Shown in pieces: positions 1,051 to 52,439 of a DNA stretch of 64,000 bases (positions within the stretch are counted from its first letter, which is position 1; the number at the start of each line of letters is the position of its first letter). The notes beneath the pieces are model-generated. The model was given only the letters and a program-made list of their open reading frames with translations. It was not told the origin of the DNA and did no database searches. The DNA comes from Eledone cirrhosa (Eukaryota), in the NCBI GenBank assembly GCA_964016885.1, contig OZ024760.1, positions 17,918,001-17,982,000 of the forward strand, in the 5' to 3' direction. A program made the translations under genes and the position numbers.

Positions 1051-2200
1051 TATATATATATATATATATATATATATATATATATATATATGTATATATA
1101 TATATATATATATATATATATTTATATATATATATATATGTATATTTATATATATATATACATTTATATATATATATATATACATACATATATATATATA
1201 TTTATATATATATATGTATATATATATATATGTATATTTATATATGTATATGTATATTTATATATATGTATATTTATATATATATATGTATATTTATATA
1301 TGTATATTTATATATATATACATTTATATATATATATATATACATACATATATATATATATATTTATATATATATATATATATATGTATATTTATATATA
1401 TATATATATGTATATTTATATATATATATATGTATATTTATATATATATATATGTATATTTATATATATGTATATTTATATATATATATATATGTATATT
1501 TATATATATATACATTTATATATATATATATATACATACATATATATGTATATTTATATTTATATATATATACATTTATATATATATATATATACATACA
1601 TATATATGTATATTTATATATATATATATATATGTATATATATATATATATATATATATATAGGAACAAGTAAGACCCCGACGGCTGAGCTCAAGCCGTC
1701 GGGGTCTTACTTGTTCCTATTACCCACTCTACTACCCTAAGTATTGAGTACTTTGGTGCGTTATGGTCCACCTGGTTCCTTACCACATTTCCTTCGTTAT
1801 ATATATATATATGTATGTATATATATATATATATATATATATATATATATATATATATATATATATATATATATATGTATATTTATATATATATACATTT
1901 ATATATATATATATATATATGTATATTTATATATATATACATTTATATATATATATATATATATACATACATATATATATATATATATTTATATATATAT
2001 ATGTATATTTATATATATATATATATATATATATATACATACATATATATATATATTTATATATATATATATACATATATATATACATACATATATATAT
2101 ATGTATATATATATATATATGTATATATATATACACATATATATGTATATATATATATATGTATATATATATACATACATATATATATATATATATATAC
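1051..2200. repeat. Degenerate (TA)n tract interrupted by a family A insert
   Basis: TA repeats with TG/TT/CA interruptions on both sides of 1661-1797. Confidence 0.95.
1661..1797 (+). mobile_element. Family A mini-element (inverted short end plus long tail)
   Basis: Hairpin 1661-1719 (TAGGAACAAGTAAGACCCCGACGGCT...AGCCGTCGGGGTCTTACTTGTTCCTA), then tail ...GTATTGAGTAC...TTCCTTCGT; (TA)n on both sides. Confidence 0.9.
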
Positions 2201-2531
2201 TATAAAGTATGTCTAAAGAATCATTTGATAAGATATATATACACCATTTCCTCTACCAATCAGCATAATCAACCACACAAAAAAACCAATTAAACCAGGC
2301 TATCAGATTAAAATGCACCTATGAAGAAATAATAGATAAACAAACGACAGCCATCTATTCGCGATCAACAGCTATAGAATATTTACCCAGCATTTCCATA
2401 GCACGTGGAAATCGATTAAATATATCGTCAACCATACACAATTAGGTATAAAATTAAAGTTAGAAGAAAAAATGTATATAAAAATACCAGGATTATATAT
2501 ATATCGGAAACATAACCTTATTATGTAACAA

Positions 2532-2605
2532 GCTGTCTGATGATGTCACGACACTCGCACACAGAACAGTGTGGCCAGTGTCGTCATTGAAATATATATC
2601 ACAGC
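2532..2605 (+). ncRNA. Type I hammerhead ribozyme motif with extended stem II
   Basis: GCTGT-CTGATGA-TGTC ACGACACT...AGTGTCGT CATT-GAAA-TATATA-TC-ACAGC; stem I GCTGT/ACAGC; tail motif TTGAGTGC at 2694, then (TA)n. Confidence 0.8.
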
Positions 2606-3954
2606 ATTATTATTAAAAGACTTGAACATCTGAAACTACTTCGCTTTTACTTATTCGATATTTACTCCGTCATTCCTATGTGGAAAAAGTACGTTGAGTG
2701 CTTGAATTGAATTGCATCAATATTTACCCTAAGTATATATATATATACACACATATATATATATATATATATATATATATATATATATATATATATATAT
2801 ATATATATAATAAATGTAATCTGAGTTTTCCGAATATTAATAACAATTTTTGATTCGTTTGCAATTATGCAAATAGGCCTCATTTAAAAAAAAAATGTAT
2901 ATATGTGTGTGTGTGTGTGTGTGTGTGTATAAAGATGTTACACTATAGTTATTTTATCGAAATTTGTAGGTATTGATTTTTATGATGTTTTTATTGTTGT
3001 TGCTGCTGCTGCTGTTGTTGTTGCTGTTGGTGGTGTTGTTGTTGTTGTTGCTATTGTTGTTATACTTTGGTGCCATTGTAAACCGTCGTTGTTTCTATTA
3101 TTATTATTGTTATTATTGTTATTGTTGTTGTGGTTGGTGTCATTGTCACGCCTCTGACTACCACCACCACCAATACCACCACGGCTATTACTGCTCCTCC
3201 TCTATACACTATATTGATGTAGTTACCCCCACCCCTACCTCAGCCCACCCACACCATCTAACACCCAGCCCACCCCACCGACCCCTCTTTTCTTTCTATT
3301 TCATTCTCTCTAGATAAAAAGCATATCTCCAGTCCGCCATTATTGTTCAAGGACCTTACTAATTACACATGCATTCTAAAGCAGGGTCCATAGTTGTCAT
3401 GAAACACTTTCTCTTTCCCCTTAAATGTTACCCGCCCCTTTTGTCAGCGGGTGTCAATTTTTCTCACCTAGGATCTCTCCTCTCCTCCCTCTCTCCCCAC
3501 CTCCATCAACACCCTACTCCACCACTCACCTAGCATCCCTCCCTCCACCAACACCTACCACCACTCACCCACCCCCACCCGCTCCACCTCCACCTTCCTC
3601 CATCACTCTCCCTCCCTCCCTCTCCACCTCCACCCCTCTCCACCTCCACCAACACCTACCTCCACCACTCACTCCACCCGCCACCCGCTACCGCCTCTAA
3701 ACCCTTTATGTACACCTTACACGAGACATTAATTCATATACACACCCTAATGTGTGTATAGTGGACGTTGAGTATTAAACGAGCTTTTCATGGCTTTTAA
3801 ATATCTGAAAATACGAAATTAAGGATCCGATGGTCCCGCGCTGTAAGTGTGAAACCTTTAGAAACCGTGTCTGATACTCAAAAGGATAAAACTTCATTTG
3901 TTTCCAAACAATCCCTTTTTTCCTTCCAAAATGATTATTATTATTACTATTATT

Positions 3955-48690: not shown

Positions 48691-48700
48691 GTATATATAT

Positions 48701-48875
48701 ATTTCTGAGGACGGCATGTAAATGTGAAGGTATGTATATTTGCTCTGATAATTTGTAATATTTTTACATAGATCTATATGATATAAATACCAACACACAT
48801 ATACATCCCGTAAAATGATGAATTTTTTAATATAAGGCACTTGTTCTTTGTTTTTATTACATTGTTTTTATTAAT
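48701..48875 (+). mobile_element. Family H copy (GAAA and stem III deleted)
   Basis: Aligns to the reverse complement of 28550-28737; starts ATTTCTGAGGA. Confidence 0.8.
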
Positions 48876-50296
48876 TTATATATATATATATATTTATATA
48901 TTTATATATATATATATATATATTTATATATATTTATATATATATATTTTTATATATAAATATATATATATAAATATATATATATATTTATATATTTATA
49001 TATATTTATATATATATATTTATATATATATATTTTTATATATATATATTTATATATATATATTTATATATTTATATATATATATATATATATATATATA
49101 TATTTATATATATTTTATATTTATATATATATATATTTATATATATTTAATTTATATTTATATATATATATTTATATATATATATATATTTATAGATATA
49201 TATATTTATATTTATAGATATATATATTTATATATATATATATTTATAGATATATATATATATATTTATATATATATATATTTATATATATATATATTTA
49301 TATATTTATATATATATATATTTATATATATATATATTTATATATATATATATATATTTATATATATATATTTATGTAGATTTATGTAGATTATGTAGAT
49401 ATTTATTAGAAAGTGAGGTTTTTTTTACAAAATGAAAAATAACCGAGGTGTCCTACACGAGTGAAAGTATAGAGAAAAAAAGATGAAATCGAAAATGCAA
49501 CTGGAGTCTTATTTTTTTTTTAAATATATATATTTATTTGGTTCCTTTACCTGTTTCGCAGTTCTTCTGCTTTTCAAAAGTAGAGTTGAGATGGAGGATC
49601 TGTGGTTTTTCTCACATATATATAAATATATATATATATATATATATATATAAATATATATTTATATATATATATATATTTATATATATATATATATTTT
49701 TTTATATATATATATATATATATATATATATATTTATATATATATATATATTTTTATATATATATATATATATATATATATATATATATATATATATATA
49801 TATATATATATATATATATATTTTTTTATATATATATATATTTATATATATATATTTTTGTATATATATTTATATATATATTTATATATATATTTATATA
49901 TATATATATTTATTTATATATATATATATATTTATATATATATATTTAGATATATATATATATATATTTCTGTATATATATATATTTATATATATATATA
50001 TATATTTATATATATATATTTATATATTTATATATATATATATTTATATATATATATATTTATATATATATATATTTATATATATATATATTTATATATA
50101 TATATATATATATATTTATATATATATATTTATATATATATTTAAATTTATATATATATTTATATATATATTTATATATATATATATTTATTTATATATA
50201 TATTTATTTATATATATATTTATTTATATATATATTTATATATATATATATTTATATATATATATATATATATTTATATACATATATATATATATA
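48875..50296. repeat. TA/TTTA microsatellite tracts
   Basis: Direct inspection; unique interruption at about 49380-49615. Confidence 0.9.
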
Positions 50297-52439
50297 ATGA
50301 TGCACACTTACTTAACTACTTTTTAGCAGAATTATATTTTATCGAGTTCCCTCGTGAGTCCATCCTTGAGGTATGTGAGTCACGTGAGAGGTGTGGAGTA
50401 TATATATATATATATATATATATATATATATATATATATAGACACACACACACACATATATATATATATACACATACATACATATATATATATATAAATA
50501 CAGTATACTGCGTGCTCTTACAAACGGCGGCCCGATCAGGGGTAATATCTGTGGAAACGATAAGATTTGAAAGCAACACCATCAAAGCACTCAATGACCT
50601 CGGCATAGAAGGCTATTCCATAAACTATTTGTAACGACAACAACAACAACAGCAATAACAACAACACAAACACCTTAAACATTTCCTCTTAAACCATTCA
50701 GTAAGTTCTGTTTCAGGAACATCAAACATATGTCTTGAACCTAAACACTTTCATATTTGTAGGTCTGTGAAGGAAGCGTGGTCTGTTTATCACTAAGTGT
50801 GTATATATGTGTGTGTGTATATATATATGTAAACATAACATCTTTCTTAATGTTACTCTTATATATATATATATATATATATATATATATATTTATATAT
50901 ATATATATATATATATATATACATTAAAACTATCCACAACGCAGAGTACTCACAACCTCTAAACTGGATTACCTATAACGATAACTTGTTACCCCATATA
51001 CATATATATATATATGTATATATATATATATATATATGTATATATATATATACATATATATATATATTTATATATATATATATATATATATATATATGCA
51101 TATATATATATACACACATATTTATATATATGTGTGTGTGTGTATATATACATATATGCATATCTATCTATATATATGCATATATGTGTGTGTATATGTA
51201 AATATATATATATATATATATATGTAAATATATATATATATATATATATATATATATATATATATATATATATATATATATATGTGCATATATATATATA
51301 TTATTCATGTATACATGTGTTTGCGTGGTGTGTGTATGAGTGTGTCAATGTGTGCCAATATATATATATATATATATATATATATATATGTTTGTGTGTC
51401 TATACGTTATAATATGTTCGTCCACCACCACCACCACCACCACCCACCCACCCTTCTCCCTATTACACCACACCTTCCCATCATTTACCGTTCTGATTGC
51501 GAAAATATGACCAACCGCCAAACGGACAGGTGGGCTTGAAATACTAAATAAACACCGTTACTCGAGACCTTTCTTGCAAACGTCTCTCGCATCTTACATC
51601 CTGTCAGCTGTTCTTTAAACCGTCCCCGCCGCCGCTATATTGCATTTACAAACATACATATACCCCCCCTCTCTCTCTCTCTCTATCTATCTATATATAT
51701 ATATATATATATATATATATATATATATAACTCTCTTTCTCTCTCTCTCTATCTATCTATCTATCTATCTATCTCTTTCATTTCTCACTTCCATCTTTCT
51801 CTTTGTCTCTCATTCTTCCCTTCTCTTTTCTCTCAAATGTTCTCTAGCCCTGGCCACACTGCCCTCACACACACACACACACAAACACATACACACGCAC
51901 GTACACACACACACATATCTATTATATATATACACTCTCTCTGTCCCTCCCTATATATAGCCATCTCTCTATCTCTAGCTCTATCTCTGCCTAACTCTCT
52001 CGCTCTTTTCTTACTTTCTCTCTAAATATGAAGAACTTTTGTAAAAAAAAAAAAAAAAAAAAAAAATCTAAATTATTGAATAATGTTACATGAAATAAAC
52101 CGTCCAACAAAACAGGAATGTCGTGGTTGGAATGTCTTTGATCTGACCTCCAGCGAGGTTACATAGAGACGAACTGATCTTCAATAAAGCCACCCTGAAT
52201 TTAATTGACCTCCAGCGAGTTTACATAGAAATGAACAGACCTCAAGTGTGGCCTCACTGAACTTATCTGACCCCCAATGAAGTTACATAGAGACTAACAG
52301 ACTAGAAGTGTGGCCACATTTAAAAATAATATTATCTCGATAAACCTCAGTTATTTTAGGAAATATAATTACAAAGTAAATATAATTGGGTATTATTCTG
52401 TGAATTGAAATCAGCAGAAATATATTCCAATATGAAGGT

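Follow-up and report, generated by a model that had tools for sequence, protein, structure and literature searches.

A doubled bulged stem adjoins the insertion ends of Hydra-type Penelope-like elements in Eledone cirrhosa and may set the start of reverse transcription

In this study, we examined a 64-kb stretch of the 3.0-Gb genome of Eledone cirrhosa (assembly GCA_964016885.1, contig OZ024760.1, positions 17,918,001 to 17,982,000; hereafter the window), which is rich in (TA)n runs carrying short hammerhead-bearing inserts, with many head-to-head pairs. A preliminary description of this window had singled out an 8-nt motif, YTGAGTRC, in the 3' tails of hammerhead repeat families (here A, B, D, E, J and F23, among others) that otherwise appeared unrelated. 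We find that this motif is the bulge and 3' arm of a conserved bulged stem, that families A, B, D and E are the 3' ends of autonomous Hydra-type Penelope-like elements (PLEs), and that insertions end just upstream of either of two such stems, about 6 nt before the 5' arm. It is probable, in our judgement, that each stem binds the reverse transcriptase (RT)-endonuclease protein of the element, with reverse transcription starting about 6 nt upstream, so that the two stems would form a two-start ruler for the PLE tail. PLEs are the closest retroelement relatives of telomerase, and the origin of their choice of template, one-sided tail and inverted ends is a standing question.

The nine 8-mers of the preliminary description all lie where they were placed (the minus-strand copies starting at 24644, 32614, 31196, 24358 and 50953), and the window contains 21 matches to YTGAGTRC, compared with a mean of 3.35 and a maximum of 8 in 20 shuffled versions. 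For wider statistics, we used 844 kb, consisting of the window and 78 ten-kb stretches (L011-L088), none of which was picked by family query. In this sample, 74 of the 84 junction-directed hits (copy-weighted) lay 30-79 nt before a (TA)n run, with 14 antisense hits in the same bins. The enrichment persisted when each of 86 end clusters, defined blind to the motif, was counted separately (sense 10, antisense 4, shuffle mean 0.63 with a maximum of 2). Furthermore, the tails are not globally homologous, as their flanks could not be aligned between seven families once the stem arms had been masked (21 pairs, highest z 2.3). The motif is therefore real, but the 8-mer consensus was drawn too narrowly: TAGAGTGC, TAGAGCAC and TCGAGCCC are the same element. 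Similarly, the reported spacing of 25-60 nt to the TA junction is mostly borne out by the distances to the first TA run (46, 41, 27, 32, 63, 61, 40, 24 and 52 nt), with the outliers just beyond that range, but it is the upstream end, and not the TA junction, to which the stem keeps a fixed register; the reported range reflects the spacing of the two stems, which varies (32-67 nt).

The full element consists of RCTC, inner pairs, a loop of 3 to more than 70 nt, the complementary inner pairs, a bulge, GAGY and a final RC. The bulge is mostly 2 nt long (TT, TA or TC; one base in family J) and the number of inner pairs varies from 1 to 5. A partner arm accompanied 77 of 132 junction-near YWGAGYRC hits but only 11 of 148 other hits. 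The stem was present in 16 of the 86 end clusters (shuffles: mean 1.0, maximum 4), and 14 of the 20 clusters with GAGYRC had a partner arm, compared with 1.5 (maximum 5) when only the upstream sequence was shuffled. Compensatory change is also evident. The outer stem pair switches between A-T and G-C from group to group, and an inner pair on which no selection had been made was Watson-Crick in the modes of 20 of 27 groups, G-U in 3, A-C in none and mismatched in 4; it was formed in 13 of the 14 groups with RC or CC next (the 14 being counted by eye). In two families, H1 (stem 2, in L154) and that of L238 (C1:390701), a C-UUCG-G tetraloop closes the sense-strand stem. Across the genome, the stem-plus-TA pattern gave 55,458 forward matches, and its reversed control 1,710-8,332. 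The opposite strand is not a clean control: of the nine clusters (of 86) with a stem there, five are the same stems met from the truncated side and four are weak or palindromic.

Read-through copies connect these tails with coding elements. Families A (717 aa, in 3.54-kb tandems), E, D, B and F5 continue into Hydra-type open reading frames (ORFs), and H1, a young family with 709-aa ORFs, was found through a Hydra-type ORF fragment in a Neptune-like locus, without use of the motif. The proteins of A, H1, E, D and F5 are 31-53% identical; thus, the families called unrelated are so in their unalignable flanks but not in their proteins. The ORFs of A and H1 contain YRDDG and a C-terminal VIY...YIG...R..H region (by eye); a Pfam search with the C-terminal half of H1 gave no match. 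Craig et al. (2021; PMC8557442, cited here, as are the other published sources, for the part of its text that was available) defined the Hydra clade by DKT, RWK without the conserved GxKF/Y, CxCX5C, the lack of CCHH, of IFD and of an N-terminal CxC, and a canonical hammerhead close to the 3' end. We compared published Hydra proteins with our ORFs by eye, and the clade label is one of motifs, not of a tree. In the present families, DKG is modified to DKT (SDKT in A, H1, E, D, B and F5), the aligned RWK site reads RLRWR, RIRWR or RVRWR (R for K), and KGLKF is absent from the Hydra-type ORFs and present in the Neptune-like ones. The linker holds CxCX5C (CNCPDRSIC, CNCRNRADC, CNCLNKEAC), with CNLC or CDLC and CKH near the end of the endonuclease (EN) domain and no CCHH (by eye). 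The hammerhead core is CTGANGA in E, D, B and F5, the U3-A8 variant TTGAGAA in A and a degenerate CAGAAGA in H1. These Hydra-type families insert into (TA)n and show an inverted truncated copy and a one-sided tail. F23, the family at 2694, is a 1,322-bp tandem non-coding unit and is probably PLE-dependent; in the unit checked, the longest ORF had 46 aa and CTGANGA occurred once.

A second stem was found in the read-through copies of six of the seven families, E having only a degenerate hairpin. The order in H1, a family found by protein and not by motif, is hammerhead, short end, stem 1, long end, stem 2 (GCTC C TTCG G, bulge TT, GAGC AC) and ATG, and of its 28 loci with a 3' hammerhead 13 were short-ended, 14 long-ended and one otherwise (by eye). 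The patterns used to search for twin stems specified nothing beyond the long end except a 5' arm; they matched 324 times in A (0 in the control), 63 in D, 12 in B and 74 in F23, and the partner arm, bulge and RC came unasked in the fetched loci in which they were checked (up to 12 for A; six each for D, B and F23). In F5, stem 2 has a long loop. The family E pattern gave 185 matches, but this family has only an unbulged GCAC/GTGC hairpin, and family J offered no usable read-through copy with a second arm (one chance-like match). Stem 2, seen only in read-through copies and absent from inserted long arms, precedes the ATG by about 20-65 nt. In the predicted fold of H1 (L154, oriented 60-320), stem 1 can pair through its 3' arm with the 5' arm of stem 2, and the folds of the twin stems may be mutually exclusive.

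The ends of insertions keep a register to these stems. When mapped on seven read-through references, in a set that includes loci picked by family queries, 227 of 281 ends fell 3-9 nt before an arm, a zone that holds 22 of 170 TA dinucleotides. By family, the figures were 91/93 for A, 83/87 for H1, 12/14 for B, 4/4 for F23, 7/10 for F5, 22/46 for D and 8/27 for E; 14 of the misses in D fall at an internal TA run and 13 of those in E at its long end. When letters shared with the target are allowed for, -6 is the best of all offsets, accounting for 294 of 360 ends and 19 of 27 groups, and the long end of F23 stands at -6 without microhomology (3/3). The two ends are also paired with each other: in 1.09 Mb not chosen by the families studied, 47 of 48 head-to-head pairs joined a long to a short arm, where half would be expected if the arms were independent (p = 2e-13). 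A further 80 long and 45 short ends were unpaired.

The stem is not confined to E. cirrhosa. In six published Hydra consensuses (PMC8557442), inspected by eye, it is clean in three, namely Hydra-2_Amil of a coral and Hydra-2_Ajap and Hydra-1_Ajap of a sea cucumber (in the last twice, before the ATG), and variant in a fourth, Hydra-1_Crog, the consensus of which starts 6 nt before the second of its variant stems. The Hydra members in Repbase were visible for only 20 nt of tail. A Pfam search for GIY-YIG brought up Neptune-like elements for the most part, with a few Poseidon-like ones (labelled from motifs), and the tails of these elements are without the stem.

A mechanism can be proposed from these footprints. 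The tandem transcript would carry both stems, and the protein, possibly as a dimer, would nick both strands of a (TA)n target. Priming from one nick at stem 2 would yield the long arm, with stem 1 in its 'tail', and priming from the other at stem 1 would yield the short arm; the joining of the two 5'-truncated cDNAs would then give the inverted head-to-head structure. Non-coding repeats with both stems could be mobilized in trans. There is a precedent in the Poseidon element PAc, the protein of which cut and extended both target strands in vitro (Frangieh et al., 2024; PMC11167929). Reverse transcription of PAc is initiated internally on the RNA, at two sites that delimit the tail; it needs no homology to the cut DNA and requires RNA 3' of the start. 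The protein is predicted to dimerize, and its binding motif was not defined. In the simplest interpretation, which we judge probable, the twin stems play the part of that motif in Hydra-type elements, each positioning an RT 6 nt upstream, one for each target strand. In its fullest form, the proposal is that each stem docks one RT (probably one half of a dimer) 6 nt downstream of its start, and that both strands are primed from one kind of transcript; this more specific version we hold tentatively, as a serious possibility that falls somewhat short of probable. The suggestion in the preliminary description of a cis-signal for RT or endonuclease recognition and 3' end definition is thus supported, with two amendments: the signal is the structure and not the 8-mer, and the TA junction is marked by the other stem.

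Several observations weigh against this interpretation. Isolated stems are weak (z -0.05 to -2.15), only 4 of 10 adopt the bulged form at minimum energy, and stem 1 of B, F23 and H1 folds otherwise in context; the case for the stem is one of covariation and not of folding energy, and stabilization by a protein would be needed. Eight of the 27 groups do not fit the offset of -6, and 9 of 43 short ends of H1 lie at -10 to -7. In family E, 10 copies define a single long-end site, yet only an unbulged hairpin lies 9 nt away from it. Among the published consensuses, by eye, the stem is absent from Hydra-1_Obim and unconvincing in Hydra-1_Amil. The Neptune-like families of this genome have discrete ends with no GAGY nearby (two usable references, a third being TA-rich), so the sequence of the stem is not needed by all PLEs. 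Finally, the counts by end cluster and by group are partly interdependent (B is related to D, and some ends occur in two groups), and function has been read here from genomic footprints.

Other explanations must be set beside the proposed docking of RT on the stems. The stems might act as DNA, if the GIY-YIG endonuclease recognized a single-stranded or extruded form, cut 6 nt away and trimmed one arm. Such a nuclease ruler would fit the fixed register too, and published work ascribes the tail to endonuclease resolution (PMC8557442) and cites a need for the D. virilis tail in endonuclease cleavage (PMC11167929). We nevertheless regard this as unlikely, since the RT starts of PAc coincide with the tail ends in vitro (PMC11167929) and stem 2 is missing from inserted long arms; more weakly, the preference of the sense strand for G-U over A-C (3 vs 0 group modes) and the C-UUCG-G loops of two families suggest RNA.

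Distinctly unlikely, in our view, is a single priming event at stem 2 followed by self-primed fold-back copying that halts before stem 1. Stem 1 would then act as a stop in the manner of a template boundary, and the template might be antisense. Such fold-back would account for the pairing of long with short arms equally well, several pairs have palindromic centres, and both self-priming and antisense templates have been proposed before (PMC3846280). However, a start and a stop on different templates would have to share the -6 register and nearly identical stems; in addition, unpaired short ends are common (45 short, 80 long), and PAc has two RT starts in vitro (PMC11167929).

The position of stem 2 shortly upstream of the ATG is also what would be expected of an operator or packaging signal, acting in translation autoregulation, ribonucleoprotein assembly or hammerhead folding, with the ends set by TA microhomology, and most ends do have 1-8 letters in common with the target. 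This we consider improbable, as the tails hold many equally good TA or TAT sites that are not used, among them a TATATAT within the loop of H1, and as the non-coding F23 keeps both stems and has a long end without microhomology. Residual ancestry without function, to which the single clade of the ORF-bearing families might point, is contradicted by flanks and loops that cannot be aligned while compensatory change keeps the pairing, across phyla as well, and is very improbable. A 5' splice donor or U1 site, the alternative of the preliminary description, merits almost no credence: although the motif resembles GTGAGT and some PLEs have introns in the 5' untranslated region (UTR), the stem-bearing groups have TT, TA, TC or CT in place of GT, several have GAGC, and the sole GTGAGT case is a reading of the wrong strand.

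Two further candidates were rejected. A coding explanation (Leu-Ser) fails because the motif lies upstream of the ATG in all six ORF families, and none of the NK-homeodomain site, the initiator element and the branch point accounts for a paired partner arm.

Within the window, stem 1 of family A at 1726..1751 (+) reads ACTC TACT, a 6-nt loop, AGTA, bulge TT and GAGT AC, and belongs to a head-to-head insertion in (TA)n at 1663..1797, the short arm of which is on the minus strand and the long arm, with stem 1, on the plus strand. Other family A copies of stem 1 are at 552..577 (-), 30016..30041 (-) and 31008..31033 (+; long arm of the pair 30894-31079), with an A-like one at 37860..37885 (-). 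Stem 1 of F23 (2664..2701, +) has ACTC CGT and ACG around its loop, then TT and GAGT GC, with the hammerhead core at 2537. In family E, stem 1 (24637..24657, -) is ACTC TGC aat GTA, TT, GAGT AC in the long arm of the long/short pair 24595-24793, and there is a second copy at 48536..48556 (-). The corresponding stem of family D (31189..31210, -) is ACTC CA ctaaat TG, TT, GAGT GC, with its hammerhead core at 31303 on the minus strand; that of family B (31954..31982, +), in the long arm of the pair 31749-32042, has a degenerate inner stem in this copy. The stem of family J (24351..24372, -) is the variant with a 1-nt bulge, ACTC GTTC tat GGAC, T, GAGT GC. Two stems had been absent from the preliminary description: a B-like one at 9697..9723 (-), with ACTC CAG, CTG, TA and GAGT GC, and an F5-like one at 18289..18311 (+), with GCTC TGT, ACA, TA and GAGC AC, which has a compensatory core pair. 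A variant at 28818..28874 (+; by eye) reads ACCC CAAAC, GTTTG, TT, GAGT GA with one core mismatch; its homologues carry a hammerhead upstream in the same orientation, and the computed fold of the region is in another register. A long/short head-to-head pair of H1 occupies 21779..21882, with the stem region deleted in this copy.

Two entries of the preliminary description were not upheld. The hit at 50946 (-) was read on the wrong strand, GAGTACTC being palindromic: longer copies put the hammerhead upstream on the plus strand, and the true hit, of which the former is the palindromic mirror, is CAGAGTAC at 50942..50949 (+). This is a 3' arm in the hammerhead sense (by eye) in a truncated copy without the 5' arm, which in longer copies is about 110 nt upstream. 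The hit at 32607..32614 (-), TTGAGTAC, lies 27 nt before TA, is a singleton in our data and has no convincing partner arm. The same letters at 24520-24527 (+) match by chance: they belong to the family J hammerhead, as its helix III and cleavage triplet. At 29809-29928, 31428-31596, 37589-37770 and 24595-24925, elements are nested in the TA tails of one another, giving chimeric chains of families.

A repeat search of the window was dominated by (TA)n, and the matches listed from an Rfam scan (150 of 334) were microsatellite-driven ones of microRNA type, none of them a hammerhead. Two metagenome scans found no Hydra-type loci. No RNA dataset was listed as carrying the family A junction, and contigs of two other runs, which spanned only part of it, were uninformative. 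A nucleotide search with the tail of E found no match in the genome, common words probably having been skipped.

The wider sample also yielded several observations on the hammerheads and their carriers. H1 (L134-L163) is young, abundant and has intact ORFs, yet its hammerhead core is the degenerate CAGAAGA, which suggests, from sequence, that hammerhead cleavage is dispensable for its spread. U3-A8 core variants (TTGAGAA, TTGATAA, TTGAAAA) are common, as in family A at L179:1370-1420 and in the families of L089 and L114, and are missed by a search for CTGANGA. Short tandems of the 5' UTR, first codons and hammerhead of A or E, with periods of 257 bp (L181/L182, C1:27009636) and 221 bp (L196/L197), appear to be retrozyme-like derivatives of autonomous elements. 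The multi-copy family with GCAC TGA GTGC (L058:8997, L080:8026) has CTGAGTGC about 64 nt before TA, with no canonical partner arm and no hammerhead seen. The Neptune-like L114 (oriented 1540-1860) and L126 (1250-1660) share a TTGA.AA core and discrete TAT ends (at 138 and 204, and at 278 and 317, of the references); they lack a GAGY stem, have a C-rich stretch with CACAC after both distal ends, and may use a different ruler. In the 3' UTR of the Neptune-like L089 family, about 200 nt after the stop, AAGCACTCTTG matches the motif in antisense and lies upstream of the hammerhead.

Potentially, these results have several applications. The in vitro study of PAc (PMC11167929) gave two internal starts but no signal in its available text, and the stem now offers a covarying, cross-phylum RNA element with a numeric prediction, namely a start 6 nt upstream and one stem per arm, for which young families with intact ORFs are suited to the existing assay. 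The stem can also serve to recognize, by structure, Hydra-type elements and the non-coding repeats that parasitize them. If the twin ruler is true, the PLE tail and the head-to-head insertions would both be explained, the signal copied by retrozyme-like parasites would be identified, and a portable 20-nt tag would be at hand with which to set the start of a telomerase-related RT on any RNA.

In summary, the Hydra clade and the PLE tail were known, whereas the stem, its doubling and the -6 register are apparently undescribed in the open-access texts searched; in the main text of PMC8557442, 'hairpin' does not occur and the two occurrences of 'stem' both refer to hammerheads. The present elements resemble that clade in the C-terminal EN without CCHH, DKT, the CxCX5C linker, a putative hammerhead near the 3' end, the (TA)n targets, the inverted 5'-truncated copy and the one-sided tail, and published consensuses of the clade have the stem; they differ in their longer tails (about 70-100 nt vs 30-40) and in the 3.54-kb unit of family A (vs less than 3 kb). 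With PAc (PMC11167929), they would have in common two tail-bounding start sites, cutting and extension of both strands, the requirement for RNA 3' of the start and the lack of any need for homology, but PAc starts in an AC-rich stem-loop in the ORF, and the starts proposed here fall within the 5' UTR, each 6 nt upstream of a conserved stem. The best model of how such a stem might work is the 3' tail stem-loop of stringent long and short interspersed elements (LINEs and SINEs; ZfL2, UnaL2; PMC4176376, PMC1636434), a small RT-recognized structure with a conserved stem and a variable loop that autonomous and non-autonomous partners have in common (PMC4176376); that of LINEs, however, is upstream of the RT start and is copied, whereas the stem described here is downstream and doubled, and stem 2 is not copied. 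Finally, F23 resembles the metazoan non-LTR (long terminal repeat) retrozymes of a recent preprint (bioRxiv 10.64898/2026.07.22.740005) in being a tandem non-coding unit with one type I hammerhead; the available text of that preprint names no shared cis-signal (neither 'hairpin' nor 'bulge' occurs in it), whereas F23 has both stems and ends at -6.

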